DNA from: Candidatus Daviesbacteria bacterium
Lineage (GTDB): Bacteria; Patescibacteriota; Microgenomatia; Daviesbacterales; UBA10151
Assembly: GCA_016432425.1 (NCBI GenBank)
Contig: CP066688.1
Span: forward strand, 514,619-578,618
Direction of reading: 5' to 3'
DNA length: 64,000 bases
Each line of letters opens with the position of its first letter. Position 1 is the first letter of the stretch. The notes below the pieces were generated by a model that did no database searches, had not been told where the DNA came from, and saw only the letters and a program-made list of their open reading frames with translations. Below are positions 1,731-51,625 of this stretch, piece after piece. The position numbers and the translations under genes were made by a program.

Positions 1731-4700
1731 TTATTATAAACCAGTCAAAGTTAATGTCAGAAGCGGTAGTGAGGGGGACAGAGACAGTAAAACTCTGGTT
1801 TGCTGTCTTTGATAGGACTGATAATGACTGATCTGTCAGATTAGTTGCAGTTACCAACACCCTGGAGTTTAACTTGATTAGGGGAGTAGCAATATCTACA
1901 GATTTAGTTCCGGCCGGAATTTTACCTGTTCCCACAGAGGCTCCGGCTACTGCCTGGTATTCTTTAGCCGATACAGTTTGAGCTGTTAAAATACCTTCCT
2001 TATTTATAGTGACCTTACCATTAAAGATATCTACTAAACTGGCTAGTGGTGAATTTTGAATATACAAAATTCCATTTGTCAAATTAGTCAAATTGGTCTC
2101 ATCAGACCAATAAGAGTTAATGGAGTTTCCGGTAATGGCCAGTGTTCCATCCACTGTGAAATCACCGGCTACTAAGGTATTCCCTAAGGTAGTATGACCT
2201 AAAGATTTAAAGCTGTTTTGAATTTCTGCATCATAGGCAGTTAATTTACCGGAAAAAGTAGCCTCGGAAGTTACTTTAAGATTGGCCAAAGTGGCTGAAC
2301 CAGTGGCCAGCAAAGTATCCGGTGGAGTCAGGTCCAGGCATTCCACCCCCGAGGTGTAATCGCATTTTTTCACCTCGGGGGTGTTTTTAGCTAGCTGGGC
2401 TGAGAGGGAAGCTATTTGGTCGGCTAAGGATTTGGTAGTGGCAGATTGGGTGGCAATGGTAGTTTGCAGATCTGCCAGGGCTCCGGACTGGGTGGCCACC
2501 TTGGCTTCCAGGTTTTGCAGGGACCTGGCCACATCAATACCAAAGCTGATACCTCCATTGATAGAGGTGGCAGATTCATAGGCCAGAACAGAATCCTGAG
2601 CCGGAGGAGTGACATTAAAGTTATAATTTAGCACCAGTTTATCTGCTTTAACACTTGGCATAATTAAGTTGCCTTGATCATCTACAGATAAGGAAGAGAG
2701 GAAATCTCCGGGATCAGCCCAGGAAACATTAACAAAAGTCATAATCTTGCCCTGGCAATTCACCTCGGGGGAGTCAGAGCCCACCCCCGAGGTGTTACAA
2801 CTGAATGCTTCCAGTGCCTTCCCCACAGTTGGGCCGGGACGGGTGGCTTTCATAGCCACACCCGGAGTGGAGGAGGAAGTCAGATAATCTCCCACCTCAA
2901 TGGGGCCATTTTCTGAGGAAACCTTGGTAGGTACTCTTCCTGCCAAAGCTAACATGACAGGCTTGGCTGTTTTTCCTTGCAGGTCCGGGGCTTCCTCATC
3001 CCCTAAAACCAGCCCAGGCTTGGTAGTCATAATGCCCAAAACTTTACCATCATAAGCCTTATCAGATTTCTTAAAACCAATACCCGGTAAATCCGGATCA
3101 GCCACCACCACATCAGCTGCCTCCAGGCTCATATCCAAAGAATAATAAACCTCTGCCAAATCAGCCCCAGTTCCACCGGTCACTGTCCAAACTATCATTT
3201 CACCCCTACCCCCAGCCGCACCAGAACCACCCGTATTAGTGCCTCCACCTCCACCTCCACCTCCACCTCCAGGCACACCACTTGCACCTCCAGCCCCACC
3301 AGTACCGGAATCCTGTGCTCCACCCCCACCCCCACCACTTCCACCTCTGAGAGTACCAGCGCTGCCAGCACCTCCGGCACCGCCATTAGTAGTACCGGCA
3401 GTACCTCCTCCGCCAGACGAATAAGAGTTGCCGCTACCACCTGCTCCACCAGCAGTTTCGGTATTGGAGCTATTAAGTCCACCACCACCCCCACCACCTG
3501 CGCCTCCCCAGCGGGAGCTACCACCTGCAACACCATCACCTCCTGCTCCACCTCCACCTCCACCTCCTCCTCCTCCAAAGTCAGCGCTTCCACCTCCACC
3601 AGGACCACCACTCCCACCACTTGCTCCAGCACTGCCGGTGACACTTGCACCACTTGTTGCACCCCCATCATTAGTTCCACCTCCACCACCGCCTGGAGTA
3701 CCATTCCCTATACAACAGTCTCCACCTTGGGAACCACCAGTACCACCTTTACCACCTAAAGCAGTAAACCAACTACTGCCAAAGGTGGTATCCCCCCCAT
3801 TACCCCCAGTACCGCCATTACTGCTTGATCCAGCAGTCCCTGCAGTCCCAGCTGTTCCGATGCTTACTGTTTCGGTTGATCCGACAGATGCAGCGTTAAA
3901 TATTCCCCTCTCAAAGTGGCCACCTCCTCCACCCCCACCACCATTTCGTCTGGTTCCGGCAGCTGCTCCTGCTCCACCCCCCCCTCCACCACCTGCACCG
4001 ATAGCTTGCACAACTACTAATATTGCTCCACTTGGTTTGGTATAAGTACCATTAGCAGTGAAGGTTTGCACGCTGGCTCCGGCATCAGTGCCGCAGGCCA
4101 AGACTCCGGAGGAGTTAGTGTCAATAGTGTTGCAGGAAACCAGTCCGGAAAAAGTAATGGTGCCGGAGGAGGTAATACCGGTCAGGCCCGAGGCAACACC
4201 GGCCCCTGTGACATCCCAGGTATTGCTGTTGATGACGACGTTATCACCGTTGTCCCCTAAATTAACAACACCGTTAGCGGTCAAGGTGCCGTTGGCGGTA
4301 ATCGTACCGGAAGCAGTCAGGGCGGCTGCGGTGATTGTGCCGGTAAGTGTTGGTGATGCGCTCATAACCACGTTGCCTGTTCCGGTAATGGCATTGGAAA
4401 CTAAATTCTTGGATGCATCTGTAAAAACAGCCTGGGAAGCAGTCAGACCGGAGAAGTTAATAGTGCCGGAGGAGGTAATACCGGTGGCGCCGGTGATGGC
4501 TCCGGCCCCGCTAATATCAATGGAGCCGGAGTTTAGGATATTGCCCAAGGTGCCGGTAATTAAGATACCGTCTGTGATGGTGCCTGCGGTTTCTGCAATC
4601 TGTATGGCATTGGTGAGGGTGCCGGCCCCTGTTTGTTCTATCAGCAGCCCATTGGTAACTGTTTCATTAATATCCCGGTTATCTATATGCTGCATGGTTT

Positions 4701-7700
4701 CCAAGGTGCCTGTGGTTAACGAGTCATTTAAGTTGGCTATGACAAAAGCTCTTTGGGTGCTGGCATCTGTGGTGGCATCATTGGTGAAAGTGATAGTTAA
4801 ACCGTCAAAAGCAGCAGCAGTGGCTGCCGTATTCCAATCAAGAGTCTGGACTGTTTCTGCCATGGCTATTGCCCCATTGCCTGTTGGGTCGCCAATGGTG
4901 TTCCAGGTGGTTCCTCCTCCGCCAAAGCTGGCCCAGGTATTGGTATCAGTGCAGCCTTTGTAGGCATTGTCAAAATCATTAAAATAGATATCACCCACGC
5001 TGCAGCTGGCCGGGTCTCCGGTGTCTGTTTTGCCTGCTGAAACATTAACAAAAGAATAAGTTCCCTGGTCTTTTAAGGCCAGCATGGCATTGGTGCCGTC
5101 ATTAAAAGTCAAAGTCCCGGCATTGGCAAAAGAGAGAATAGGGGTGGAGTCGGCAAAGTTAATATCCGTGTCCCAGGTGGTGCCGATAGTTAAGGCAGTG
5201 TCAGTCCCATTGGAGGTGGTAATGTTGTCAATCTTAATGGCGTTGATAGTGCCGCCGGCAGTGGTGGTGGCGGGAGGGGTAATGAGCAGGCCGTTTAAAG
5301 TGCCGGCCCCTACTGCAGTCATGGAAGCAGAGAGCATATTTTCTGTGCCTCCGGTAGTGATGGTGCCGTTTGATACTAATACTCCTGAGGCAGTGATGGT
5401 GCCGCCAGCTGACTGGGTAATATTAGGCAGCTGGATATTGGCTCCTCTCCAGGCAAAAGAGCCGGCTGTAGCATTGGTAATGGCTCCGGTGGTACCTAAA
5501 TTAAAGCCGGTATAGACTGTATCATTGGAAGTAGTGGAGGCAACCGGCAACTGGAGATCGTATCCGGTGATATTTTGGCCGGCAGCCGGGGTAGTGAGGT
5601 TGGTATTGAGATTAAGAGACATGCCTGTAATGGTGGCTGCTCCCTGGGTGGTGGCTCCTCCAAAGTCGGCATTGACCAGGGTGCCCGAGGTCCAGGCGGT
5701 TTCTAAGGTAAAGTCCAAATATGTGCCGGTGGTTTGAGGGTCAATGGTGACGGCGCCGGTTGCTCCGGCCACATCAAAGTAGGTCAGATCAATGTTGGCG
5801 GTGGTACCGATAATATTGTTGTCGCCGATATTTAAGGAGTTGGTGTAGTCGGTGTCTGTTATGGTGATTGCGGTGGTTACTGCCGCGTCCGGGCTGAACG
5901 TCATGGCTCCGGTTGCGGTTAACTGCACATTCTGGGCGGTGATAATTAAATCTTCGCCTGCCGCGTCTCCGCCTGAAGCGTTAAGAGTAAGCGTTCCTGA
6001 CGTGGTGGTGGAAATGGAGAGGTCTCCAGATGTTGAGTTAATGCTCCTGGTCCCTGCCCCGGCAATTTCAATGGCATCCCCTGTGCCGGCATTCTCTACA
6101 TGAAGAACGTCTCCCGAGGAGGTTGAGTAGTTCTGGTCAACCACCAGGACATTACCGGTATGGGTTAGGGTTCCTGTAGTTTGTGTAGAAGTATCGGAAA
6201 TTGATACCAGTGCTCCTGAAACTGTTAAGGTAGAGGCAAAAAGGGAGTTGGTGGTGACTGACCTGCTTATATCTAATACTTGTCCCGAGATTGCGGGGGT
6301 AGTTACTGCTGTGGAGTAGGTAGGAGAGAAGGAGATGTTGGCAGTATCAGCAGATAAGGTGGTGTCGGTGGCAGCGGTTGCTGATTGGGCCACATTCAAA
6401 AGCACCCCCGAGTCAATGGCATTGCTAGTTGAGGTAATATCCAAACCCTTGCCGGTGGTTAAGGCGTCAACCGAGAGAGTCAGAGCCGTCCCGCTGGAGA
6501 TACTGTCTGTGGTTATATCAATGGCATTAACAGTGGCTGCTCCACTGTTTATATCAAAGGTGGTGGCTACCCCGGTATTACCCAGAGTAATGGCATCAGC
6601 ATTGGTGGCACCGGTGCCGATATTGATGGTATCGCCAGCAGTACCGGTGCCTAAATTAATAGTTTTGGTGGTATTGGCAGTAAACAGGTTGCCGGTGGTG
6701 GTCGAGGAACCGGCCACCGGTAGGTCTAAGGTTACAGAGGTGGTTGTATCAGATGTTGATATATTGAGATAGTTATCTGTGCCTTGCTGAATATCCAGAG
6801 CATCAGCTAAATTATCAGGAATATTGCCGGTGATGCCGGCATTAGAGGTGGCATTAATGGTGACTCCGTCATCACCTGTGATGGTTAACAGGCCATTTGA
6901 GGTAGACCAGGTGGAGGCATTGTTAGCAGTTAGGGTAAGAGCTTGGGCTGCTCCGGCAGCCACAGTTAAAGCCCCGCCGGCAGGACCGGTAATGGTGGCA
7001 GCCCCATCTGCATCCACAAAAGTAATATCTCCCACACTACTAAACTGGATGGAATCTGTACCGTTACCTATTTCTAAAGGTGCAGATGGGGTAGCGTCCC
7101 CAATGCCCACATTACCATTTTCCACAATCAGCCCATAATTGGCAGTAGTAGCCCCGGAAGCTGAAAAATATCCGGCTACATTGGTGCCTGATGTGGCATT
7201 GGTATTGGTAACTGCAGAATATATGCCATAAGCTGTATGGGCCAGTTGGGCATTGGCTCCGGATCGGGCCAGATTTAATAACTTTGATGTTCCTGATGCT
7301 CCTCCTGCAGTTGAGGTTGAAGAGACATCCACAGCAGTACCGGTTGAGAGGGCATCAGCGGAAATGATCAAAGCTGTACCTGTTGAGATTGAGTCAGCCA
7401 GATAGGACAAAGGATTGGTTGTTGTAGCTGTGGTGTTAATGGTAGTGGTCTCATCAATATCCAAAGTATTATCCAAATCATCAAAATCTATACAGTCAGT
7501 ACAGTTGAAGGCTGTCACATCAGTGGCTGTCAGGGTGGTAGCCCCGCCCAGAGTTAAGGTATCTGTGGAGTGAGTTAAAGTCACATCACCGTTGTTAAAA
7601 TTAATTACTCCACCACTGGCTAAAAACAGATCAGACCACATCAGGGCAGTAGTGCCTAAAGCATTACCATCAGAGGTGGAGGGGGAAAGGGAGGTGGCAT

Positions 7701-10700
7701 CAAGTGTTAGCTCATTAGTCCCCCCGATACCAATCTCTAAAGAGGTGGTGGCATTAATATCGCTGTCCCAGCCAGTTCCTATTGACAAAGCAGTGGTTGC
7801 TGAGTTGGTGGTAGTGGTGTTGCCAATGTTTACTGCAGTAAAAGTATCTGCATCAGTAGATTCTGTCCAGGTAATGTTTAACCCGGTATTTGCATCTGCC
7901 CCGGTATCTGCAGTTGAAGTTACTGCTATGGTCAATCCATTGATGGCATTTACTGATGTGCCTGCAATATTTGCCACATCTCCTGCATTAGCCCCAGTCT
8001 TGGATATATTGGCAGTGTCTCCGCCGTCCAAGGTGACATTAAAGTCTCCACCTGATAGATCTAAATCACCATCGTTAACTAAAATATCTCCAGCTGTAAT
8101 GTATAGGGCATCTGTTCCATCAGCAGAACCTGCTATAACCAGGTTTCCCTCTGTTGGGCTAGAGTCCCCAATGCCCACATTACCATTTAGGAAAGTGGCA
8201 GCATAAGTAGTATCAGAGGCATTGGCAGTGGATACATCAACATATAATCCATAAACAGTGTTGGCCAAGGATCCTGCATCTGTTAAACCAATATCAAAAA
8301 CCCTTAAGGTATTGGCATTGGTTGAGGGGGAGTTAGTGATGTTTATATCCATTGCAGACTGTGTCCCGCCGGCAGTTGGTGTATAAGTGGCTGTTAAATC
8401 AAAGATGTCCCCGGTGGTGTGGGCAGCAGAGGTTGCCAGTACCAAAAGCGGTTGGGTAGTTAAAGAGGTAGTGCCTGTTAAGTTAATTGAAGAGTTAAAA
8501 TCCAGCTCATCATTGGTGGAGTCCCATAAAATGACAGCATTGGGGGTGGTGTCGCCGCGCTCAAACGCCAGCGAAGCATCTTCGGTATCGAGGGTGTTGT
8601 TATCAGAGTTGATGGTCCAGGAGCTGGAGGTGGTGGAACCACCTGTCACTGTTCCTGCTAGATTGGTCGCATCAACTGTATCAAACCAACCGGTGGCAAA
8701 GCGGGTGCCGGAGGAGCCAACATCAGTCCCTGCGCCTTGCGCTAAGATATCAGAGCCTGTTGACATTTGGATGTTACCCCCAAATTGGGCAGCCCAGTTG
8801 GTGGTGGCACCTGAGGCTGTGAAATAGCCGCCGATATTGGTGCTGGTAGTGCCGGTATTGGTGACAGCAGAGTAGAGCCCATAAGCTGTGTGGGTGGCAT
8901 TGGCATTAGCACCGGAGCGGGCCAGATTAAGTAAAATTGAGGATGAAGAACCTGTCCCTGCGGTGGAGCTTGATGCCAGATTAACTAACCCGTTGGTGGT
9001 GCCATTGCCGGTCCAGGTATTGCCGGTGGTGGCAATATCCAAAAGCCTGCCTGTGGTGACAGCATCAGTGGTCAGATACAGACCGGTTCCTGAAGTGATG
9101 GCGGTGGCATCAAAGACAAAACCAGAGGTAGTGGTGGCACCTGTTGCCACATTGGAGGTAAAAGTTTGAGAGCCGGTGCCGGAGGTTAAAGCCAGGGAAC
9201 TGGTAGAGGCATTGTTGCCGATGGTGATAGTGTCTGCTCCTGTTCCACCAGTACCAATATTGATGGTATCTGCCCCTGTTGCACCGGTGCCGGCCATGTT
9301 GATGGTGTGAGTTCCGGAACCGGAACCTAGGTTGATGGCAGTGTAGTTGCCTGAACCATTACCCAGATCCAGCAGAGTGGTGGCAGCTCCACCCAAAGAG
9401 AGAGTGGTGGCTGTGGCGTTAAAGATGGTGGCAGTTGTTGTAGTTGTTGTTATATCAGCAGAAGTTGCGCCATTAACAGCCAGGTCTCCGGTGATGGTAG
9501 TATCAGCATCGAATGAATACCCGGAAGAGGCCCCGGCAAAAGCCAGGGTATCTGTGGAATGGGTTAAAGTTACATCCCCATTATTAAAGTTAACTACTCC
9601 ACCACTGGCTAAAAACAGATCAGACCACATCAGGGCAGTAGTGCCCAGGGCATTCCCGTCAGAGGTGGAGGGGGAAAGGGCAGTGGCAGTTAAGGTCAGT
9701 TCATTACTCCCCCCAATCCCCAGGTAAAGGGTGCCGGCGCTGTTTAGGGATAAATCACCTGAGGTGGCTGTGGAGATAGTTAAGTTCCCAGAGGTATTAG
9801 TCCAGGCAGAGGTGCCGCCGGAAGCCAAAGTTAGCGCTCCGGTGGAATTGCCCAGGGTGGTGGTGGAACCGGCTCCGGTAGAATAGGTATGAGCTCCTGA
9901 TGCTCCGGTGCCTAAGGTGGTATTACCGGAGGAGGTCAGGGTGGTGAAAGCCCCGGTCCCGGCAGTAGTGGCCCCAAGGGAAACAAAGTTGGCAGCCCCG
10001 GCCCCGGTAATATTCCAGTTGTCATCATTTAAAGCCAGGGAAGAGGAGGCAGTGGTGGTACCGATGGTAATGGAGTTGGCCACCGCTCCTGTGCCAATGG
10101 CGATAGTATCTGCTGTAGTTATTCCGGTGCCAATGTTAATGGTATCAGCAGCAGTACCGGTGCCTAAATTAATGGTCTTGGTGGTATTGGCAGTAAAAAG
10201 ATTACCGGTGGTGGTAGAGGAGCCGGCTACCGGTAAATCAATGGTTACAGAGGTAGTAGTATCAGAAGTAGATATATTGATATAGTTATCAGTGCCTTGC
10301 TGGATATCCAAGGCAGGAGAAGTGTTATCTGGAAGATTGATGGTGGTAGTACCACTGATGGTTAAGGTATCAGAGGTGGCATTGCCCAAGGTGGTGTTGC
10401 TGTCAACTGTTAAATTGCCGGTAGTGGACAGGTCTCCGCCGGTTGATAAAGTTGTACCTTGGACTGTTAAAGATTGGGCAATGGTGACTGAACCGGAAAA
10501 ATCCCCGTCTTTTCCCCACAGTTTATTCCAGCGGGTAGAAGATGAGCCCAGATTATAGAAACTGTCACTGAGCGGATTAAGGTTAGTCCCGACTGACCCG
10601 CTTAAATTAACAGTGCCGTTGAAAGTGGCTGCATCACTGATAGTCATCTTGCCGGCAAAATTGGCATTACCTTCTTTGTCAATGGAGGAGTTAGACAAAT

Positions 10701-12210
10701 AAAGGGATTGGAAGCGGCTCCCGGTGGTGCCAATGGAACCGGTTTTGGTTAAATAGGGGTAGATGTCACCGCCGGCTGTTACCCAAACAGAACCGTCACC
10801 GATGGCTGATGAGGCCCCGTAAGGCCTAACCTGGGCAAAACCGGAAGCCCCCACTTCTGTCACTGACACATCATCTAAATAAACTACTCCCGAAGATAAA
10901 TTCGGGAACTCTATAACCGGGAACCAGTTTTCCCCTTGGCCCGGGCCGGGGGAGTTCATATCAAACTCCAGGAGCTGCCAGCCATTTTGCAGGTTAGTCA
11001 AATCTGAGCTGGTTAACTGTTTAGTAGTAGTGCCGGTTCGTTGCTTAGACACCGGGTCCCAGAAGCTAATCTGGAGATCAAAGGCGCTACTTTGATATGC
11101 TTTGAGGTAGAAAGCTAGATGATATGGACGAGATTCCCCGGTGACAGTATCCGGGTTTAAGATGCCTAAGTTGGAGGTGCCTCCCACAAACTTTAAGCTG
11201 TTATAGCCGGAGCGGGCCAGTTCATTGGTCAGAAATGTATTGGCAGAGGTGGAATTTCCTAAATAAATCCAGCGGTTAGGCAGACCGTTGTTGTTAGCTT
11301 CAAAAGAAGAGTTGGGCAAGAGGTTGGGGGAGGAGGTATCCGAAAGATTTGAGCTTAGAGCTTGGAGGCTAACTTGAGCATTCTTTTTGTCATCCTGATC
11401 CGCCAGCTGGCGGAGAAGAATTTCTTCTTCAGCCTCAACTAATCTTCGGCTGATCTCATTGATCCTGTCAGTTTGCACATTAACTACCTGGGCTACATCC
11501 GGAAAGCCTAAATCTTGGGCAGTTTGGGGGGAAGTGACCTGGATAGCCTTTTGGGAAAGAAAATTAAAGGGAGAGAGAATTTTACTTCCCACAGCTTGTA
11601 ACAGACCCAGGGTATCACTGGCTGCTCCCAGCACTTCACCCTTTTGGGCAGTACTGGCAGAGGCTGCAGACGCCAGGGCAATCTTTTTAGTAGTTTCAGG
11701 AAACTTTAAATAACCAACAGTTAAAACGGCAGTCAGGATAAAAGTGATGGCCCCGGCAGTAAGGATTGATTTAGCGATCCAAGAGGGCACTGTTGCGGGA
11801 GTTTCAGGTTGGCTTAAATTTTGCGCCAGAGACTCCAGTAAAAGCTGGTTTTGTTGTTGGGGGTTAAATGAGAGAGGGGTTAATCGTTTGACATCTTTGA
11901 CACTGTAAGACCGCTCACCGGTAGAGGACCTTTGGGCAGGGAACTTACCTTCTTTATCCCAGCGCCTTAAGGTTTTAATGGACACCCCTAATTTATCAGC
12001 TGCTTGTGAAATAGGGATTTGAGTCCTGCCTTTGGCGGGATGCTTGTGAAATTTGAGGAGGTTTGGTAGGTAAAACAGCCTGGTCCCGCCCGGAGTTTTG
12101 ATGGAGGAAATCTTGCCGGCTTTTTCCCAGCGGCGGAGGGTGTCAATGGAGACTCCTAAAACCTTGGCAGCTTGACCAATTTTGATGTAGTTGTCAGACG
12201 GATTTTGCAT
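1717..12210 (-). CDS. Giant (3,497 aa) membrane-anchored surface protein. Two N-terminal excisionase/MerR-type HTH domains, one TM helix, a CBM4/9-like carbohydrate-binding module, a long Thr/Gly/Ser-rich beta-helix/tail-fiber-like repeat region, a poly-Gly tract, a coiled coil and C-terminal globular domains.
   Basis: Single uninterrupted ORF. HTH1 KIGQAAKVLGVSIDTLRRWEKAGKI and HTH2 ISQAADKLGVSIKTLRRWDKEGKF. TM WIAKSILTAGAITFILTAVLTVGYL. CBM-like NLLPNSSFEANNNGLPNRW...YLDDVSVTEV. Repeats of GTGxxADTINIGTG type. Internal duplication ALSPSTSDGNALGTTALMWSDLFLASGGVxNFNNGDVTLTHSTDTL. TFTANGTYTKPSGAILVVVQAIGAGGGGGGG glycine-rich motif. Confidence 0.8.
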   Translation of the reverse strand: MQNPSDNYIKIGQAAKVLGVSIDTLRRWEKAGKISSIKTPGGTRLFYLPNLLKFHKHPAKGRTQIPISQAADKLGVSIKTLRRWDKEGKFPAQRSSTGERSYSVKDVKRLTPLSFNPQQQNQLLLESLAQNLSQPETPATVPSWIAKSILTAGAITFILTAVLTVGYLKFPETTKKIALASAASASTAQKGEVLGAASDTLGLLQAVGSKILSPFNFLSQKAIQVTSPQTAQDLGFPDVAQVVNVQTDRINEISRRLVEAEEEILLRQLADQDDKKNAQVSLQALSSNLSDTSSPNLLPNSSFEANNNGLPNRWIYLGNSTSANTFLTNELARSGYNSLKFVGGTSNLGILNPDTVTGESRPYHLAFYLKAYQSSAFDLQISFWDPVSKQRTGTTTKQLTSSDLTNLQNGWQLLEFDMNSPGPGQGENWFPVIEFPNLSSGVVYLDDVSVTEVGASGFAQVRPYGASSAIGDGSVWVTAGGDIYPYLTKTGSIGTTGSRFQSLYLSNSSIDKEGNANFAGKMTISDAATFNGTVNLSGSVGTNLNPLSDSFYNLGSSSTRWNKLWGKDGDFSGSVTIAQSLTVQGTTLSTGGDLSTTGNLTVDSNTTLGNATSDTLTISGTTTINLPDNTSPALDIQQGTDNYINISTSDTTTSVTIDLPVAGSSTTTGNLFTANTTKTINLGTGTAADTINIGTGITTADTIAIGTGAVANSITIGTTTASSSLALNDDNWNITGAGAANFVSLGATTAGTGAFTTLTSSGNTTLGTGASGAHTYSTGAGSTTTLGNSTGALTLASGGTSAWTNTSGNLTISTATSGDLSLNSAGTLYLGIGGSNELTLTATALSPSTSDGNALGTTALMWSDLFLASGGVVNFNNGDVTLTHSTDTLAFAGASSGYSFDADTTITGDLAVNGATSADITTTTTTATIFNATATTLSLGGAATTLLDLGNGSGNYTAINLGSGSGTHTINMAGTGATGADTINIGTGGTGADTITIGNNASTSSLALTSGTGSQTFTSNVATGATTTSGFVFDATAITSGTGLYLTTDAVTTGRLLDIATTGNTWTGNGTTNGLVNLASSSTAGTGSSSSILLNLARSGANANATHTAYGLYSAVTNTGTTSTNIGGYFTASGATTNWAAQFGGNIQMSTGSDILAQGAGTDVGSSGTRFATGWFDTVDATNLAGTVTGGSTTSSSWTINSDNNTLDTEDASLAFERGDTTPNAVILWDSTNDELDFNSSINLTGTTSLTTQPLLVLATSAAHTTGDIFDLTATYTPTAGGTQSAMDINITNSPSTNANTLRVFDIGLTDAGSLANTVYGLYVDVSTANASDTTYAATFLNGNVGIGDSSPTEGNLVIAGSADGTDALYITAGDILVNDGDLDLSGGDFNVTLDGGDTANISKTGANAGDVANIAGTSVNAINGLTIAVTSTADTGADANTGLNITWTESTDADTFTAVNIGNTTTTNSATTALSIGTGWDSDINATTSLEIGIGGTNELTLDATSLSPSTSDGNALGTTALMWSDLFLASGGVINFNNGDVTLTHSTDTLTLGGATTLTATDVTAFNCTDCIDFDDLDNTLDIDETTTINTTATTTNPLSYLADSISTGTALIISADALSTGTAVDVSSTSTAGGASGTSKLLNLARSGANAQLAHTAYGIYSAVTNTNATSGTNVAGYFSASGATTANYGLIVENGNVGIGDATPSAPLEIGNGTDSIQFSSVGDITFVDADGAATITGPAGGALTVAAGAAQALTLTANNASTWSTSNGLLTITGDDGVTINATSNAGITGNIPDNLADALDIQQGTDNYLNISTSDTTTSVTLDLPVAGSSTTTGNLFTANTTKTINLGTGTAGDTINIGTGATNADAITLGNTGVATTFDINSGAATVNAIDITTDSISSGTALTLSVDALTTGKGLDITSTSNAIDSGVLLNVAQSATAATDTTLSADTANISFSPTYSTAVTTPAISGQVLDISRSVTTNSLFASTLTVSGALVSISDTSTQTTGTLTHTGNVLVVDQNYSTSSGDVLHVENAGTGDAIEIAGAGTRSINSTSGDLSISTTTSGTLTLNASGGDAAGEDLIITAQNVQLTATGAMTFSPDAAVTTAITITDTDYTNSLNIGDNNIIGTTANIDLTYFDVAGATGAVTIDPQTTGTYLDFTLETAWTSGTLVNADFGGATTQGAATITGMSLNLNTNLTTPAAGQNITGYDLQLPVASTTSNDTVYTGFNLGTTGAITNATAGSFAWRGANIQLPNITQSAGGTITASGVLVSNGTITTGGTENMLSASMTAVGAGTLNGLLITPPATTTAGGTINAIKIDNITTSNGTDTALTIGTTWDTDINFADSTPILSFANAGTLTFNDGTNAMLALKDQGTYSFVNVSAGKTDTGDPASCSVGDIYFNDFDNAYKGCTDTNTWASFGGGGTTWNTIGDPTGNGAIAMAETVQTLDWNTAATAAAFDGLTITFTNDATTDASTQRAFVIANLNDSLTTGTLETMQHIDNRDINETVTNGLLIEQTGAGTLTNAIQIAETAGTITDGILITGTLGNILNSGSIDISGAGAITGATGITSSGTINFSGLTASQAVFTDASKNLVSNAITGTGNVVMSASPTLTGTITAAALTASGTITANGTLTANGVVNLGDNGDNVVINSNTWDVTGAGVASGLTGITSSGTITFSGLVSCNTIDTNSSGVLACGTDAGASVQTFTANGTYTKPSGAILVVVQAIGAGGGGGGGAGAAAGTRRNGGGGGGGGHFERGIFNAASVGSTETVSIGTAGTAGTAGSSSNGGTGGNGGDTTFGSSWFTALGGKGGTGGSQGGDCCIGNGTPGGGGGGTNDGGATSGASVTGSAGASGGSGGPGGGGSADFGGGGGGGGGGAGGDGVAGGSSRWGGAGGGGGGGLNSSNTETAGGAGGSGNSYSSGGGGTAGTTNGGAGGAGSAGTLRGGSGGGGGGAQDSGTGGAGGASGVPGGGGGGGGGGTNTGGSGAAGGRGEMIVWTVTGGTGADLAEVYYSLDMSLEAADVVVADPDLPGIGFKKSDKAYDGKVLGIMTTKPGLVLGDEEAPDLQGKTAKPVMLALAGRVPTKVSSENGPIEVGDYLTSSSTPGVAMKATRPGPTVGKALEAFSCNTSGVGSDSPEVNCQGKIMTFVNVSWADPGDFLSSLSVDDQGNLIMPSVKADKLVLNYNFNVTPPAQDSVLAYESATSINGGISFGIDVARSLQNLEAKVATQSGALADLQTTIATQSATTKSLADQIASLSAQLAKNTPEVKKCDYTSGVECLDLTPPDTLLATGSATLANLKVTSEATFSGKLTAYDAEIQNSFKSLGHTTLGNTLVAGDFTVDGTLAITGNSINSYWSDETNLTNLTNGILYIQNSPLASLVDIFNGKVTINKEGILTAQTVSAKEYQAVAGASVGTGKIPAGTKSVDIATPLIKLNSRVLVTATNLTDQSLSVLSKTANQSFTVSVPLTTASDINFDWFIINESQ

Positions 12211-12616
12211 TTAAGCTTGCATACATCTACTCTGCCTAGATTTGGGTATGCATCCAAATTCCGTCTGTAGATTCAGCATATCCATATATAATAAGATTTG
12301 TCAAGCCTTTAATTGTATAAGTATGGGATATGAAAAATATTTCCACAAAATCTTTTGTTTAAGCTAAATGATGCCTATGCCTGGTGGTTACTATAAGATT
12401 GAAAATTTGTTATTGATAATGTGCATCAATCTACAATCAACTGTATCAATTTTTTTAACGCACAGGCAAGAATTAGGGTTAAGGGATTAGTAGTAACTAT
12501 TACGGGAAGGTCAAATATCTCTCAGAATATATCAAAAGATGTCCACTAAGTAGTTAATTTATATATGTGAAAAAACGTGTGAAAATGTAACATCATTCTG
12601 AGTATTCTTAATTCTT

Positions 12617-12650
12617 TCAATTCGGTCAACGATCGTTGAATGAATTGAAT
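12617..12650. promoter_or_regulatory. 34-bp near-perfect palindrome TTCAATTCgGTCAACGATCGTTGAaTGAATTGAA (family-1, CGATCG-centred) in the divergent leuS / giant-gene intergenic region.
   Basis: Core TCAACGATCGTTGA is perfectly self-complementary and the flanks TTCAATTC/GAATTGAA also pair. Same family as the sites at 16422, 21781 and 22334. Confidence 0.5.
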
Positions 12651-12738
12651 GTATGATCACATTGGCAGATTTGCAATTTGAGATCTCAGGTTTGAGATGT
12701 TACAATCAAGCTTATAAGGGGAACCCTCTAATTACATT

Positions 12739-12756
12739 ATGAAGGGGACCTTCTAA
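12739..12756 (+). promoter_or_regulatory. Leader mini-ORF ATG AAG GGG ACC TTC TAA (MKGTF*) with embedded hairpin GAAGG-gga-CCTTC, 7 nt upstream of the leuS ATG. Part of a 27-bp tandem duplication (ctctaattacattatgaaggggacct x2).
   Basis: Direct reading. The identical peptide/hairpin unit recurs at 51601 and 49315 (minus strand). Confidence 0.45.
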
Positions 12757-12763
12757 TTACATT

Positions 12764-15331
12764 ATGAAAAAATATATTCCCCATGACATTGAACCTAAAT
12801 GGCAGCAAAAGTGGCAGAAGGATGCTCTCTACAGCGTTGACTTGGATAAATCTAAAAACCCCTATTATTTGTTAGTGGAATTTACTTATCCTTCCGGGGA
12901 TTTGCATATTGGTCATTGGTTTGCCTTTGCTGTGCCTGATATTTTAGGCAGGATGAAGAGAATGCAGGGGTTTACAGTGTTTTACCCTAATGGCTTTGAT
13001 GCTTTTGGGTTGCCCGCAGAAAATGCTGCCATCCAACGGGGTATTCATCCCAGAGATTGGACTTTGTCAAATATAGAAAATATGAAAAAGCAATTTTCCT
13101 TAATGGGGACCATTCATGATTGGGGAAATAGCGTCATTACTTGTCTATCAAACTATTACAAATGGAATCAATGGATTTTCTTAAAGATGTTGGAGAAAGG
13201 TTTGGCTTACAAAGGTAAAACTTTATCTAACTGGTGCCAGCATTGTCAAACTGTTTTGGCCAATGAAAATGTAGAAGCTGGTAATTGTTGGAGATGTCAT
13301 AATCCGGTAGTGCAAAAAGAGGTAGAACAATGGTTTTTAAAGATTACAGATTATGTCCAGAGGCTCCTTTGGGGCGAAGGTGGTAATGGGGTAGATTGGC
13401 CAAAAGCTCTGATGGAGGGGCAGAATAATTGGATTGGCAAAAGTCAGGGACAAGTGATTAAATTTGATGGCATTGAAGTGTTTACGACCCGTCAGGACAC
13501 GATTTTTGGGGCTACCTTTATCGTTATCAGTCCAGAACATCCACTGCTAAGTAAATTTGTTACATTTGAAAATAAAGAAAATGTCCAAAAATATTTAAAA
13601 TCCGTCCAGAAAAAGTCGGAACTGGAAAGAAAAGAAGAAAAAGTCAAATCTGGCGTTTTTACAGGTTCATTTGTGAGTAATCCCTTGACTGGTGAGCAGA
13701 TTCCGATTTGGATTGCTGATTATGTTTTGATGGGATATGGAACAGGGGCAATAATGGGAGTACCGGCCCATGACGCGCGGGACTTTGAATTTGCCAAAAA
13801 GTACGATTTACCTATAAAAACTGTTATCCAACCAGCGGGTCATACCGACTCACCGTCACCCGCTAATCAGGTACCAGATCAAGCCTACGTTTTGACGAAG
13901 TCAAAAGGCAAGGTTCTGCCAAAGGCAGGTTCTTATGATTTGACGAAGTCAAAAGGCAAGGTTCTGCCAAAGGCAGGTTCTTATGAAGGGGAGGGAGTTA
14001 TGGTAAACAGTGGTGAATATGATGGTATGAGTAGTAATGAAGCTCGGGAAAAGATATCAAACTATCTTGAAGAACATCATTTAGGTCAGAGAAAAGTTAA
14101 TTACCACCTCCATGACTGGTCCATCTCCCGTCAAAGGTACTGGGGTACCCCCATCCCCATTATCTACTGTGAAAAATGCGGCAGCGTACCGGTACCGGAA
14201 AAAGATCTGCCGGTGGAACTACCTTACGAAGTAGATTATCATCCTACCGGTAAACCGCCTTTGGCCACTAATGAGGCTTGGCTTAATGTGAAATGCCCTC
14301 GCTGTCTTGGTTCAGCCAAGAGGGACACTGAAACCATGGATACTTTTGTAGATTCATCCTGGTATTTCTTGCGTTATTTAGATAATAAAAATGACCAGGA
14401 AATTGTTAGTTCAAAACGACTCCGAACTTGGATGCCGATAGACATATATTTTGGCGGGGCAGAGCACACGCTGGGGCATACCTTATATTCCCGGTTTTTT
14501 GTGAAATTCCTAAAAGACATTGGAGTAGTGGATTTTGAGGAATATGCCAAAAAGAGAGTTAACCATGGAGTGATTTTGGGCTCGGATGGCTCCCGGATGA
14601 GTAAATCCCGGGGTAATGTGGTTAACCCAGATGAGCAGGTTCGCCAGTTCGGAGCAGATGCAGTCAGGTTATATTTAGCTTTTATCGGTCCTTATGATAT
14701 CGTTTCTCCTTGGAATCCATCAGCTATTAATGGTGTTTACCATTTTTTGCAAAGAGTTTGGTCGCTTTACGACAAAATAGCCTCGATCGGCAACAAGTTG
14801 TCGTCAGAAGACTTACGAATAATGCACAAAACTATCAAAAAAGTGACAGAAGACCTGGAGGATATTAAGTTTAATACGGCTGTGGCAGTTTTGATGGAGT
14901 GGTTAAACTACTTAAGTCGTAAGGAAAACGTGACCAGGGAAGAGTATAAAACTTATCTACTGCTCTTGGCCCCCTTTGCCCCTCATATTACGGAAGAACT
15001 ATGGTCCTTCGACAAAGTTTACACTGAGCGAACCTGTGGTGAGTGTAGTCGAACCAGTCGAAGTGCTCAGGATCAACAAATCTGGTCTATCCATCAGCAG
15101 TCTTGGCCTATCTTTGATAAACAATATTTAGAGGAAGCAGAAGTGGCTGTGATTGTCCAGGTCAATGGGCGGCTGCGGGATATTTTGATGATACAAAAAG
15201 ATATATTAAATGATAAAGAAGCTGTAGAAAAATTAGCTCGGGCAAGCCAAAAGGTGGCTAAATACTTAGATGGGCAAACTGTTAAAAAGGTGATTCACGT
15301 CTCCGGGAAACTAATCAATTTTGTTGTTTAG
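12764..15331 (+). CDS. leuS: Leucyl-tRNA synthetase.
   Basis: 855 aa. Class I HIGH (HIGH-like HIGHWF) and KMSKS (RMSKSRGN) motifs and LeuRS-typical editing/anticodon-binding regions. Contains a 70-nt in-frame repeat insertion at 15006..15075. Confidence 0.95.
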   Translation: MKKYIPHDIEPKWQQKWQKDALYSVDLDKSKNPYYLLVEFTYPSGDLHIGHWFAFAVPDILGRMKRMQGFTVFYPNGFDAFGLPAENAAIQRGIHPRDWTLSNIENMKKQFSLMGTIHDWGNSVITCLSNYYKWNQWIFLKMLEKGLAYKGKTLSNWCQHCQTVLANENVEAGNCWRCHNPVVQKEVEQWFLKITDYVQRLLWGEGGNGVDWPKALMEGQNNWIGKSQGQVIKFDGIEVFTTRQDTIFGATFIVISPEHPLLSKFVTFENKENVQKYLKSVQKKSELERKEEKVKSGVFTGSFVSNPLTGEQIPIWIADYVLMGYGTGAIMGVPAHDARDFEFAKKYDLPIKTVIQPAGHTDSPSPANQVPDQAYVLTKSKGKVLPKAGSYDLTKSKGKVLPKAGSYEGEGVMVNSGEYDGMSSNEAREKISNYLEEHHLGQRKVNYHLHDWSISRQRYWGTPIPIIYCEKCGSVPVPEKDLPVELPYEVDYHPTGKPPLATNEAWLNVKCPRCLGSAKRDTETMDTFVDSSWYFLRYLDNKNDQEIVSSKRLRTWMPIDIYFGGAEHTLGHTLYSRFFVKFLKDIGVVDFEEYAKKRVNHGVILGSDGSRMSKSRGNVVNPDEQVRQFGADAVRLYLAFIGPYDIVSPWNPSAINGVYHFLQRVWSLYDKIASIGNKLSSEDLRIMHKTIKKVTEDLEDIKFNTAVAVLMEWLNYLSRKENVTREEYKTYLLLLAPFAPHITEELWSFDKVYTERTCGECSRTSRSAQDQQIWSIHQQSWPIFDKQYLEEAEVAVIVQVNGRLRDILMIQKDILNDKEAVEKLARASQKVAKYLDGQTVKKVIHVSGKLINFVV
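15006..15075 (+). mobile_element. 70-nt interspersed repeat copy A, inserted in-frame inside leuS. 100% identical to copy B at 26865..26934 (opposite orientation).
   Basis: ccttcgacaaagtttacactgagcgaacctgtggtgagtgtagtcgaaccagtcgaagtgctcaggatca. It encodes ~20 extra residues (FDKVYTERTCGECSRTSRSAQDQ) between the conserved EELW and SIHQQSWP LeuRS segments. The termini are inverted (cttcgac...gtcgaag). Confidence 0.7.
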
Positions 15332-16364: not shown

Positions 16365-16421
16365 AAATTAGATTAGTATATAAAAATAGTCATTAGTTAA
16401 CCCTCAATTTAATATTCAATC

Positions 16422-16439
16422 TTGACACGATCGTATCAA
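16422..16439. promoter_or_regulatory. Family-1 palindrome TTGACACGATCGTATCAA immediately upstream of the comEC ATG. The -10-like TATCAAT ends 2 nt before ATG, so the mRNA is probably leaderless.
   Basis: Direct reading. 17/18 positions are self-complementary. Confidence 0.4.
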
Positions 16440-16441
16440 TA

Positions 16442-17468: not shown

Positions 17469-19244
17469 ATGTTAAAACAGAAATTATTAGAGGATTTACA
17501 AAAAACAGTGGAGGATTTGGGCTACCCGTCAACTGATATACTTTTATCTATTTCTAAAAATCCGGAGTTTGGAGACTATACCACAAATATCGCTTTACAA
17601 CTTGCTAATTTAGAAATCGGAAAACTTCATCACTCGCCAGTTGAGATTGCTAATGAAATTAAAAATGCTTTAGAAAAACTAGTAATTGGTGACAAAGAGC
17701 GAAACTATTTAGAAAAAGTAGAGGTAGCTGGACCTGGTTTTATTAATTTTTACCTTAAGACGGCGGCCTTAATAAAAAATTTACCCTTAGTTTGTAATTA
17801 TACAGCCATGGTTGACCCTCAAATTAAGGTAGCGGGTGAAAAAAGAAAAATTTTAGTTGAATATGCCAGTTTTAATGCTTTAAAACCTGTTCATGTAGGG
17901 CATTTAAGAAATATTGTGCTAGGGGAAAGTTTGGTCAGATTGCTTAAATCTACGAACAATGAGGTTTTTAAAGTCACCTACACTTCTGATATTGGTCTGC
18001 CCACAGCTAAAACTATTTGGGCGGTTCAGCAACTAAAGAAACAGTACCAACAAGCTCAAAAAGCTGCTCTTTCCGAAAAAGCAGATTTTTTGGGCCAAGC
18101 CTATGCTTTTGGATCAGAAAAATACAATGAAGATGAGGTAGTTAAAAAAGAAATTAATGAACTGAATAAAAAAATTTACGCCAGAGATAAAGAGATCAGC
18201 AAACTATGGCAGGAGATTTTAGGCTGGAGCTTCGATTATTTTAATTATATTTATGAGCTAGTAGGTACAAAATTTGACAAAGAATTTTTGGAGTCGGAAG
18301 TAGAAGGAGAAGGCAAAGAAATTGTTTTAAAAAATATAGACAAGGTTTTTAAAGAGGACCAGGGGGCAGTAATTTTTAGGGGAGAAGAACATGATCTCCA
18401 CAACAGAGTTTTTGTCACTTCTGCCGGGAATCCTACTTATGAAGCCAAAGAGATGGCTTTAGCCAAACAGGAATATAAGGCTTTCCCTTTTGATCTGGCA
18501 ATCCATGTAGTAGCTAACGAACAGTTGGAGTATTTTAAGGTAGTTTTTAAGGCTTTGTCACTGCTGGATAAAAATTTGGCTAAAAAAGAAAGACATTTAT
18601 CTTACGGGTATGTCACTTTGTCTTCCGGCAGGATGTCTTCCCGCAAGGGTAATGTCATTATTCTGGAGTATATTTATGATAAGGTGAGGAGAGCTGTTGA
18701 GGAAATTATGAAAAAATCAGCTACAGTTAAGGATATCAGTGAGAATGAACGCCAACAAATTATTAATATGGTCAGCCTGGGGGCGATAAAATTCTCCCTG
18801 CTTAAATATTCCCCCAAAACAGATGTGGTTTTTGATCTAAAAAAATCAGTTTCCTTAACTGGTGACAGCGGGCCTTATGTGCAATATAGCTATGCCCGGG
18901 CCAAATCAGTTTTGCGGACTGCCCATTATGATTATGAAGCTAAAAAATCAGGGCAACCGAAGAAAGTTGGGAAAATGGCTTTAGAATTAGAAGAACGAAT
19001 GATACTGCGCAGAATAGAGCAATTTCCACAGTTGGTTAAAGAAGCCTCTGATAGTTTTGCCCCTCAGACAGTAGCTAATTTCTTACTGAGCTTAGCTAAA
19101 GAATTTAATTTGTTTTATCAAAAACACCCTATTATTAAGGCTAAGGACAGTGGCGAGTTTAGGTTAGCTTTGACTTGTGCAGTGGCAGTAGTCTTAAAAC
19201 AGGGATTGTATTTATTAGGTATTGAAGCACCGGAAAGAATGTAA
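17469..19244 (+). CDS. argS: Arginyl-tRNA synthetase.
   Basis: 591 aa. N-terminal Arg_tRNA_synt_N region. HVGH class I motif (PVHVGHLRN). C-terminal DALR-type anticodon-binding domain. Confidence 0.9.
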   Translation: MLKQKLLEDLQKTVEDLGYPSTDILLSISKNPEFGDYTTNIALQLANLEIGKLHHSPVEIANEIKNALEKLVIGDKERNYLEKVEVAGPGFINFYLKTAALIKNLPLVCNYTAMVDPQIKVAGEKRKILVEYASFNALKPVHVGHLRNIVLGESLVRLLKSTNNEVFKVTYTSDIGLPTAKTIWAVQQLKKQYQQAQKAALSEKADFLGQAYAFGSEKYNEDEVVKKEINELNKKIYARDKEISKLWQEILGWSFDYFNYIYELVGTKFDKEFLESEVEGEGKEIVLKNIDKVFKEDQGAVIFRGEEHDLHNRVFVTSAGNPTYEAKEMALAKQEYKAFPFDLAIHVVANEQLEYFKVVFKALSLLDKNLAKKERHLSYGYVTLSSGRMSSRKGNVIILEYIYDKVRRAVEEIMKKSATVKDISENERQQIINMVSLGAIKFSLLKYSPKTDVVFDLKKSVSLTGDSGPYVQYSYARAKSVLRTAHYDYEAKKSGQPKKVGKMALELEERMILRRIEQFPQLVKEASDSFAPQTVANFLLSLAKEFNLFYQKHPIIKAKDSGEFRLALTCAVAVVLKQGLYLLGIEAPERM

Positions 19245-21774: not shown

Positions 21775-21812
21775 TTGACACATTTCATTCAACGATCGTA
21801 TAATGAAATGTT
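21775..21812 (+). promoter_or_regulatory. Promoter of PaaX-like gene 1. TTGACA - 18 nt - TATAAT with a 30-bp family-1 palindrome (CATTTCATTcaACGATCGTatAATGAAATG) occupying the spacer and -10. The ATG lies 8 nt after the -10, so the mRNA is leaderless.
   Basis: Direct reading. The 9-bp arms are perfect. Confidence 0.5.
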
Positions 21813-22331
21813 ATGAGGGGTATTTACAAAAAAAGTTTAAGTGAGGCTATTCTATTAGCTTTGGAAAAAGCTGTAGATGGATATGTTAGGTATGACGATT
21901 TAATTCATCACCCATCTTCATATGCCTGGGGAAGTGGTTGGGATAAACAGTTAAAAAAGCCTACTCTTTCTCAAGCCTTAAAAAGGCTGAGAGAGCGTGG
22001 TTTAATACAGGAGGATAAAGTAGATACGAACAAAGTTATTTTTAAATTAACTGAAGCAGGGAAAGATGCCTTGGGAGTGGGATTTTTTGATGAAAAGAGT
22101 TGGGATGGAAAGTGGAGGATTGTAATATTTGATATTCCGGAACAGAAAAGGTTGGTTAGAGACCTTTTTAGGAGAAATCTTAAAAAATGGGGTTTTAAGC
22201 ATTTACAGAAAAGTGTTTTGGTTAGTAAGCAGGACATTTTTTCTAAACTAACTGCTTATGTTAAAGAATTGGGGATCGAGAGATGGGTGGTGGTAATAGA
22301 ATCAGATAGATTGAGCAATCACAATTCATAA
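21813..22331 (+). CDS. PaaX-like winged-helix transcriptional regulator, paralog 1 (172 aa).
   Basis: N-terminal wHTH (ILLALEKAVDGYVRYDDL). C-terminal PaaX_C-like motif WDGKWRIVIFDIPEQKR...LRR.L...GF..LQKSV. ~50% identical to the 52746..53264 paralog. Confidence 0.55.
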   Translation: MRGIYKKSLSEAILLALEKAVDGYVRYDDLIHHPSSYAWGSGWDKQLKKPTLSQALKRLRERGLIQEDKVDTNKVIFKLTEAGKDALGVGFFDEKSWDGKWRIVIFDIPEQKRLVRDLFRRNLKKWGFKHLQKSVLVSKQDIFSKLTAYVKELGIERWVVVIESDRLSNHNS

Positions 22332-22408: not shown

Positions 22409-22481
22409 GGCCCTGTAGCTCAGTAGATAGAGCGGTCCCGTCCTAAGGGAAAGGTCGGGGGTGCAACTCCCTCCAGGGCCG
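22409..22481 (+). tRNA. tRNA-Arg (anticodon CCU).
   Basis: Acceptor GGCCCTG/CAGGGCC, D-arm GCTC-AGTAGATA-GAGC, anticodon loop GTCCTAA (CCT), T-arm GGGGG-TGCAACT-CCCTC, discriminator G. Confidence 0.75.
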
Positions 22482-22489
22482 CTTAAAAA

Positions 22490-23170
22490 ATGAGCACCTA
22501 TTATAAATTAGTTTTATTTGTCAGGTTCCTGGGATATTTTAGTTTACTAACCGGGCTGCTGGCTTTGTTATTTATTTTGGGTCCGCTGGGACTGGCAGAA
22601 GCTCGTTATAGGTCAGATCAACTATTGGGGGTTAAAAGAACTCTGCCTAAAATTATCAAATCAGATCAAACACAAGCAACCACCTCTGCCACCCCTCTTC
22701 CTAAAGTGTCGTTGACACCTTTAAGCATTGATCCGATAGATACCAACTTTGGGATTGTCATAGAAAAAATTAATGCCAATTCAAAAGTAATTGCTGATGT
22801 TAGTCCAACTGATGAAAGGCAATATGGCAGAGCGCTGTTGCAAGGGGTGGCTCATGCCCAAGGGACAGCTTATCCAGGGCAAAAAGGGAATATTTATCTT
22901 TTTTCCCATTCTACTGATGCTCCCTGGAATATTATCCGGTTTAATGCAGTATTTTACTTACTCCGAGAGTTAGAGCCAGGAGATAGAGTAGTGATGTTTT
23001 ATCAAAATAAAAGGTATGATTACCTTGTTTATGATAAAAGGGTAGTTTCTTCTACAGATGTTAGTTTTTTAACTAACCAATATGATCAATCAGTGCTAAC
23101 TTTACAAACCTGTGATCCTCCGGGAACACTAATTAATAGGCTTATCATTAGGGCAAAGTTGGAAGAGTAA
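22490..23170 (+). CDS. Sortase-family transpeptidase.
   Basis: N-terminal TM. Catalytic-cysteine motif TLQTCDPPGT and upstream His region (YLFSHS). Confidence 0.7.
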   Translation: MSTYYKLVLFVRFLGYFSLLTGLLALLFILGPLGLAEARYRSDQLLGVKRTLPKIIKSDQTQATTSATPLPKVSLTPLSIDPIDTNFGIVIEKINANSKVIADVSPTDERQYGRALLQGVAHAQGTAYPGQKGNIYLFSHSTDAPWNIIRFNAVFYLLRELEPGDRVVMFYQNKRYDYLVYDKRVVSSTDVSFLTNQYDQSVLTLQTCDPPGTLINRLIIRAKLEE

Positions 23171-49307: not shown

Positions 49308-49314
49308 AACGTAG

Positions 49315-49332
49315 TTAGAAGGTTCCCTTCAT
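49315..49332 (-). promoter_or_regulatory. MKGTF mini-ORF (ATG AAG GGA ACC TTC TAA), 7 nt upstream of the GH5 ATG. Its ATG overlaps the TGA stop of the upstream DMT transporter gene (ATGA).
   Basis: Reverse complement of 49311..49332 is atgaagggaaccttctaactac. Confidence 0.45.
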
Positions 49333-51541: not shown

Positions 51542-51600
51542 ATCTTCATATTAGGCTAGATTTTGTGCGCTGTAAAGCTTAGAGGTGTTATGATTAAATT

Positions 51601-51618
51601 ATGAAGGGAACCTTCTAG
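51601..51618 (+). promoter_or_regulatory. MKGTF mini-ORF (ATG AAG GGA ACC TTC TAG) with hairpin GAAGG-gaa-CCTTC, 7 nt upstream of the 51626 gene ATG.
   Basis: Direct reading. Third occurrence of the unit. Confidence 0.45.
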
Positions 51619-51625
51619 TTTCATT

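Follow-up and report, generated by a model that had tools for sequence, protein, structure and literature searches.

The 25-nt sequence that recurs immediately upstream of unrelated genes in the DNA analysed here (a single stretch of 64 kb, referred to as the window; protein accessions QQG43090-QQG43135, locus tags HYW45_) is, judging from sequence comparison, very probably a dispersed insertion at ATGA start codons. It appears to be a lineage-specific insertion, the orthologous junctions of relatives being empty and already leaderless or ATGA-coupled, and we would see in it a tiny, dispersed and probably mobile repeat which leaves the gene able to be expressed, rather than a leader that evolved with these genes. 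The recognition of this small insertion, confined to a lineage and placed at start codons, together with its empty orthologous sites, is what our analysis chiefly adds to an earlier note on this DNA, which had described a mini-ORF encoding MKGTF before three genes. That description was correct: ATGAAGGGRACCTTCTAR matches exactly at 12739 (+), 51601 (+) and 49315-49332 (-), each match stopping 7 nt short of a long ORF's ATG, and a degenerate copy with three mismatches lies at 12714 (+). The three loci are made up of the following parts.

12678..12706, plus strand: leuS promoter, with -35 box TTGAGA, 17-nt spacer and extended -10 box TGtTACAAT (10 of 12 matches, TG present)
12714..12738, plus strand: degenerate first unit, ATAAGGGGAACCCTCTAA followed by TTACATT; ATG lost (ATA), shifted 5-bp hairpin and TAA kept
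12739..12763, plus strand: intact unit before leuS, with mini-ORF 12739-12756 (MKGTF and stop) and hairpin 12741-12753; 51.6 bits
12757-12763, plus strand: spacer of the leuS copy, followed by the leuS ATG at 12764 (LeuS ORF 12764-15331, 855 aa)
48243-49307, minus strand: GH5-like gene, 354 aa, its ATG 7 nt after the mini-ORF stop
49308..49332, minus strand: intact unit between the EamA transporter and GH5-like genes; 49.8 bits
49332-49330, minus strand: mini-ORF ATG of this copy, followed by its stop TAA (49317-49315), spacer (49314-49308) and the gene ATG (49307)
51586..51594, plus strand: extended -10 box TGtTATGAT, 6 nt before the 51601 mini-ORF ATG
51601..51625, plus strand: intact unit, with mini-ORF 51601-51618, stop TAG and hairpin 51603-51615; 50.3 bits
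51619-51625, plus strand: spacer of the 51601 copy, followed by a 233-aa gene (51626-52327)

In the window 0.28 matches to ATGAAGGGRACCTTCTAR are expected by chance, and a count of four was reached in none of 100 dinucleotide-preserving shuffles. A covariance model built on a 31-nt unit and used to scan the window and relatives gave about 50 bits for each intact copy and 28 bits (E 2e-4) for the degenerate one, against a background of at most 11 bits in the window and noise of at most 13 bits over 160 kb; further, more diverged copies were not found by this model in the 160 kb, nor were copies of intermediate divergence in the window. The sequence of the 51601 copy is identical on independent Logan contigs. 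In addition, curated Rfam covariance models found five tRNAs in the window at gathering score and did not match the unit, with nothing at E<=1 in 12600-12850, and a scan of viral contigs for the unit gave no matches. A scan of genome contigs with the 15-mer GAAGGGNACCTTCTA was too unspecific, with at least 119 chance matches in unrelated phyla.

The order reported previously, from ATG through stop and 7 nt to the next ATG, stands, but we take the real repeat to be 25 nt rather than 18 because the 7-nt spacers are also alike between copies (YTWCRTT: TTACATT, TTTCATT and CTACGTT) and ATGA is found on the right, so that ATGA borders the unit on both sides. The unit can be written as A-GGGRACCTTCTAR-YTWCRTT plus a duplicated ATGA. 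Spacer length is invariant, and three of the seven spacer bases differ among copies. Reading of the sites bore out that the same peptide is encoded three times and that the intact 18-mers differ at two sites only, GGG/GGA and TAA/TAG; both are silent for the ORF, which encodes MKGTF in all intact copies with synonymous variation only (of 54 possible substitutions we count 10 as silent, so that two silent ones have a chance of about 0.03). Counting the flank, stops are present in all three frames, namely TGA at bases 2-4, TAA or TAG at bases 16-18 and the TGA overlapping the gene ATG. All four intact copies, the three in the window and one from a second organism (contig L123), end 7 nt before a long-ORF ATG on the same strand. 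No Shine-Dalgarno (SD) motif GGAG or GAGG was found in range (4-15 nt) before the real ATG, the sole purine run being an AAGG 18 nt upstream.

The hairpin GAAGG-N3-CCTTC is indeed present as a 5-bp stem and is predicted in every copy, although it is weak at -4.5 kcal/mol. The possibility that the structure acts and the ORF is incidental, the hairpin serving in RNA as a protein or RNase site or a stabiliser, or in DNA as an operator just past the transcription start, has to be weighed here, given that variation among intact copies falls outside the stem throughout, that the core is identical in organisms of differing GC content, and that the degenerate copy, which has no ATG, still folds a shifted 5-bp hairpin of similar energy (-4.1 kcal/mol) via changes on both arms. 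The loss of the ATG with retention of the hairpin in this copy hints that structure rather than ORF may be preserved. However, the covariation comes from one degenerate copy only, the stem is short and weak and has no Rfam match, and an operator is disfavoured by the two of four loci that are operon-internal and show no recognisable promoter. Furthermore, a hairpin alone leaves the in-frame stop, the exact 7-nt spacing and the ATGA at both ends unexplained. We therefore consider a purely structural role unlikely.

Several other roles for the unit were considered and rejected. An intrinsic terminator or attenuator is not supported, the stem being weak and without a U tract: no terminator was called at leuS, a lax pattern was met by the 51603 copy only, and the tails after the hairpin, TAATTACATT and TAACTACGTT, are not U tracts. 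The SD-sequestering switch raised in the earlier note fails for want of an SD to sequester and because the hairpin is weak, and a hairpin that draws a distant SD near the start fails since no SD lies upstream of it. A -10 promoter inside the unit is contradicted by the hexamers TCTAAT, TCTAGT and TCTAAC, in which either the conserved A of position 2 or the T of position 6 is missing, while hexamers of TAATTA type stand too close, at 4 nt from the ATG. Cleavage by a MazF-type enzyme at ACA was rejected because the spacer contains ACA at leuS only. Nothing supports excision of the unit as a mini-intron at the RNA level, which we find scarcely credible; to our knowledge, bacteria do not possess the endonuclease that this would need.

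Evidence for insertion comes from orthologous sites that are empty. At leuS, two relatives (L124 and L125) have TGcTACAAT, 6 nt and then ATGAAGAA, a plain leaderless layout without the unit. The window has gaTGtTACAAT (TTGAGA 17 nt upstream), 7 nt, two 25-nt units and then ATGAAAAAATAT; its box matches that of the relatives, and the start after the second unit reads ATGAAAAA. The tandem duplication described before leuS is real, the two units standing in direct tandem with a 25-nt period and the first copy beginning ATA. At the junction between the EamA and GH5-like genes, the relative L133, which is syntenic with the window (shared order GH1-EamA-GH-PBP), shows a direct ATGA overlap without the unit, ...gccaaATGAAACTG, or written out ...atcgccaaATGAAACTG. 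The corresponding junction in the window reads ...gtcaaATGAA[GGGAACCTTCTAACTACGTTATGAA]ATTACT, or in another notation ...attgtcaaATGAA[GGGAACCTTCTAACTACGTTATGAA]ATTACT. When the 25 nt are removed, the flanks of L133 and the window are identical at 43/60 and 37/60 positions, whereas without removal the right flank matches at 19/60. The size differences at these two empty orthologous sites are thus exactly 50 nt at leuS and 25 nt at the EamA/GH5-like junction. Removal of the 51601 unit in silico leaves TGtTATGAT, 6 nt and ATG, a canonical leaderless start. No copy was found when about 64 kb from five relatives were scanned with the covariance model; in protein comparison LeuS of the window is 100% identical to a protein of a Candidatus Daviesbacteria MAG (CPR, Microgenomates), and the next relatives are only 59-68% identical.

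The neighbourhoods of these genes have features of their own. Divergent from leuS lies a giant protein of 3497 aa (window 1717-12210, minus strand) with two N-terminal MerR-type HTH domains, and homologues of 2677+ and 3758 aa occupy the same neighbourhood in relatives (L124 1-3300). EamA and the GH5-like protein are separate coupled genes in the window and in L133, and in some relatives (L134 413-2179; P0281, P0334, P0370) they form one fused ORF of about 590 aa. The 354-aa protein itself has no Pfam match; its homologues have GH5/GH42 Pfam matches and are named as cellulase-family, and for this reason the label 'GH5' is acceptable.

A metagenome scan with a 26-nt pattern, in which the AT of the mini-ORF ATG was left free, gave one further copy, on contig L123 from another Daviesbacteria-like organism; the contig has a GC content of 35.6% compared to 42.8% in the window. 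Its sequence is gatttaaaATGAAGGGAACCTTCTAATTTCATTATGagt, in which the AT of the mini-ORF ATG is present though not required by the pattern, and it is also found on contigs of three further independent assemblies. Here the mini-ORF ATG overlaps the TGA of a cyclophilin gene, whose relatives are Daviesbacteria/Microgenomates (nearest 68% identity), and the TAA is followed after 7 nt by the start of an unrelated ORF of 242 aa. L131, which comes from a relative of that organism, has neither the unit nor the 242-aa gene between cyclophilin and nrdR. This might suggest that the unit marks a cassette boundary, a reading we rejected: L131 lacks gene and unit together, but at leuS and the GH5-like gene only the unit differs. 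The region 4509-9407 of L131 also contains a ribonucleotide reductase with a LAGLIDADG intein and, two genes downstream, a Y1 transposase gene (PF01797); at the corresponding place the L123 organism has a GIY-YIG gene (L127 5880-6143).

With this copy included, the downstream proteins are LeuS, the GH5-like enzyme and the 233-aa and 242-aa membrane proteins, which are mutually unrelated. Given that the four are unrelated, the unit is not an orthologously inherited leader, and a conserved orthologous leader was accordingly rejected. Could the repeat nevertheless be a chance fragment whose position at start codons is coincidental? The known loci number only four, those of the 64-kb window plus L123, and start-codon placement has been read from these; moreover, local duplication could be favoured by the ATTATGA-like sequence common to AT-rich gene starts. 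Against this, the observed count was never reached by shuffling, true copies reach about 50 bits where noise stays at 13 bits or less, the identical 18-mer recurs with the same architecture in a second organism, and two orthologous sites are empty with exact differences of 25 and 50 nt. We regard coincidence as highly improbable and close to refuted.

How an insertion at the start codon could be tolerated may be understood from the gene starts of the host. A TANNNT box lies 5-9 nt upstream of 19 of the 46 gene starts in the window compared to 10.9% of control ATGs (p = 1e-7), a GGAGG-type SD is present at only about five window genes, and several operon junctions in the window are stop/start overlaps. 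From these three features we infer that the host relies largely on leaderless mRNAs and translational coupling. Starts of leaderless type include those at 17469, 21813, 23208 and 53767 and those of the minus-strand genes 30368-31111, 45153-47612 and 50234-51541, and the layout is conserved at orthologous genes in L125 (ArgS, PaaX_M).

Other starts in the window are of separate interest. The sortase gene begins, with its ATG at 22490, 8 nt downstream of a tRNA gene (22409-22481; region 22409-22492), an arrangement also seen in L125 at about 19140-19218, and tRNA 3' processing could yield a near-leaderless sortase mRNA. The promoters of ComEC and of a PaaX_M/Cas2-like gene have ACGATCGT, with a CGATCG palindrome, directly before the -10 box (window 16420-16441 and 21790-21812; L125 upstream of 12941 and 18469); it is conserved in both genomes and could serve as an operator or be methylated. 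The PaaX central Cas2-like domain (PF20803) is found in two small paralogues, at 21813-22331 and 52746-53264, which each adjoin tRNA genes, and L125 likewise holds two PF20803 proteins. The L7/L12 ORF (31136-31747, minus strand) has 203 aa, of which about 75 at the N-terminus are extra, and its ATG is preceded at 9 nt by a GGAGG; the L1 ORF (41042-41881, minus strand) has 279 aa from a GTG with the domain beginning at residue 113; these long ORFs are either unusual extensions or start-site ambiguities. A 193-aa ORF (1149-1730, minus strand) has a sub-threshold match to PF05635 (23S rRNA intervening-sequence protein) at 29 bits, the cut-off being 33.8.

On balance, and with modest conviction, we favour a reading in which the start-codon insertion unit also carries a translated mini-ORF from which re-initiation takes place. 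The MKGTF mini-ORF would presumably be translated and the ribosome would presumably re-initiate, so that the unit probably hands ribosomes over to the gene proper in a manner resembling the mycobacterial MIRUs. The left ATG sits where ribosomes would have started before the insertion, that is, on the predicted first base of a leaderless transcript (51601) or in an ATGA overlap (49332 and L123). Insertion would leave the gene's old ATG in its loading context, either the 5' end of the transcript or the upstream ATGA overlap. The old ATG would now open the five-codon MKGTF ORF, which the unit would close with TAA or TAG, and the unit would recreate ATGA 7 nt on, where the terminating ribosome could restart on the real gene across a very short gap. 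As a 25-nt insert shifts the frame, a ribosome from the old ATG would misread the gene unless stopped; with stops in three frames, ribosomes of any frame would be released at or just before the real ATG. Such a relay with a regenerated start would allow the unit to precede even the essential leuS without silencing it, and the unit may incidentally lower or tune translation.

The spacing of stops and starts bears on this proposal. At two loci the spacing into the mini-ORF is -4 (ATGA), and the spacing out of it is +7 at all loci. The mini-ORF ATG at 49332-49330 overlaps the EamA stop TGA (49331-49329) as ATGA, in agreement with the overlap noted earlier for this transporter ORF. Termination-reinitiation coupling needs overlaps or very short gaps (PMC10666635; PMC6728339) and almost disappears once the gap reaches about 20 nt (PMC10666635). 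Because of this collapse, a bare 21-nt insert at the ATGA junction of EamA and the GH5-like gene should uncouple the two, but two short hops of -4 and +7 need not. The silent variation and the fixed spacer length also fit the relay. Nevertheless, the spacings usual in coupling, -4 or -1, favour it more than +7 does, and leuS presents a further difficulty. The earlier note had placed a -10-like box before the mini-ORF ATG in two cases, making it a 5'-terminal AUG. This was borne out at 51601, where TGtTATGAT lies at 6 nt, but at leuS the promoter points at the ATA copy, with a predicted transcription start at about 12713/12714, and the intact mini-ORF cannot be credited with the 5'-terminal AUG. 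Its AUG lies about 25 nt inside the predicted transcript with no SD. Since the predicted start falls on the ATA copy, ribosomes cannot load at leuS by a simple 5'-terminal relay; either they load on AU-rich leaders without an SD, or the real start differs from the predicted one. The suggestion of a coupling or re-initiation leader thus survives in part: the anatomy fits (ATG placement, in-frame stop 7 nt before the real ATG, no SD), but the unit resembles a dispersed, probably mobile repeat rather than a leader that evolved in place.

An adaptive role for the peptide must also be weighed, in which stalling or drop-off on MKGTF sets ribosome flow and so senses a metabolite, an antibiotic or the supply of charged tRNA. 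The identity of the peptide in all intact copies would be expected of such a sensor, and leaderless short ORFs of mycobacteria act as attenuators (bioRxiv 10.1101/834739). Yet it is difficult to see what signal functionally unrelated downstream genes could have in common, stalling would have neither an alternative RNA structure nor a terminator to act on, relatives have these genes without the unit, and at leuS the codons bear no relation to leucine. We find a sensory leader peptide decidedly improbable.

Returning to the start-codon insertion with its relay, we regard the mycobacterial MIRU as its closest known analogue, although the unit is not a member of the MIRU family. MIRUs measure about 46-101 bp and are not known to have an obvious palindrome, whereas the unit has 25 nt and carries a small palindrome. 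MIRUs are described as apparently mobile and as inserting at start codons, where an ORF inside the repeat becomes coupled in translation to the gene and little harm is done (Supply et al. 1997, Mol Microbiol 26:991, summarised in PMC12548453); the stop of the internal ORF overlaps the gene start (-4 nt) and its start overlaps the upstream stop (PMC12548453). Both are short dispersed repeats, sometimes in tandem and oriented with the flanking genes; the unit, too, is an insertion at gene starts for which orthologous sites without it exist, and the mycobacterial lineage is also rich in leaderless mRNAs (PMC4633059). The mini-ORF start of the unit overlaps an upstream TGA at two loci, and its stop lies 7 nt before the gene ATG without overlap. 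Moreover, the unit is found at 5'-terminal leaderless starts as well as between cistrons, and its phylum is a different one, CPR/Patescibacteria.

The small size of the unit also recalls the SDR repeats of cyanobacteria. We know of no report in which SDRs target start codons or contain a start-stop-restart layout. They are described as dispersed repeats of about 20-27 bp (Elhai et al. 2008, Genome Res 18:1484, as cited in PMC3116915 and PMC2884548). They share with the unit the tiny size, dispersal, occasional tandem arrangement, insertion between homologous sequences, hairpins in some cases and the lack of a known mobilising enzyme; like them, the 25-nt unit is recognised as an insertion by its two empty orthologous sites. 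The SDR families were described from heterocyst-forming cyanobacteria, a different phylum, and the likeness is one of description. REP/REPIN elements are short palindromic repeats that spread by copy-and-paste through RAYT transposases (PMC3116915, PMC3733652), and the unit is likewise a short palindromic dispersed repeat. REPs, however, measure 20-40 bp, start with a GTAG or CGTC head next to an imperfect palindrome that is longer, and are mostly extragenic at 3' ends, often as inverted pairs, whereas the unit has neither GTAG nor CGTC at either end, a palindrome of 5+3+5 nt, a direct tandem and a position strictly 5' of genes. No Y1 (RAYT) transposase was found among the proteins of the window.

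With termination-reinitiation at ATGA/TGATG junctions, ribosome-delivering uORFs (PMC6728339, PMC10666635, PMC12548453) and synthetic bicistronic designs, the unit shares the ATGA overlap, a very short gap, independence of an SD and a short ORF that hands the ribosome on. Those systems are fixed in particular gene pairs or engineered, while the unit is a portable sequence at unrelated genes for which the coupling is predicted. Similarly, the 51601 mini-ORF ATG, as the predicted first base of its transcript, resembles 5'-terminal uAUGs and leaderless short ORFs (PMC4965119; PMC4633059; bioRxiv 10.1101/834739), which are locus-specific; the 25 nt of the unit recur, and two of its four copies are operon-internal.

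Mobility of the unit, most likely by copy-and-paste, is something that we infer from its distribution. Neither a transposase nor any other mobilising enzyme was found among the window's proteins, and we know of no mechanism for moving 25 nt. The ATGA on both sides is either a target duplication or part of the unit; each insertion restores the ATGA target, and this would account for the two units in tandem at leuS. We raise only tentatively the idea of an actively mobile element of 25 nt, among the smallest known, which an enzyme mobilises, whose specific targets are the ATGA start codons of CPR bacteria and whose built-in relay is convergent with that of MIRUs. The relay, consisting of a start, an in-frame stop, three-frame stops and a regenerated start, would let such an element colonise essential genes.

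Translation initiation in uncultured CPR bacteria is almost unknown, and the window suggests that leaderless and stop/start-coupled starts are in use. Our observations suggest that a portable 25-nt cassette exploits these modes of initiation. Gene callers, as well as promoter and 5'-UTR predictions, would need to allow for such units in genomes of this kind. The unit would offer a compact natural case of SD-independent re-initiation and could serve as a natural bicistronic part. If confirmed, it would mean that the MIRU-type strategy of insertion at start codons arose independently in a second lineage rich in leaderless mRNAs.
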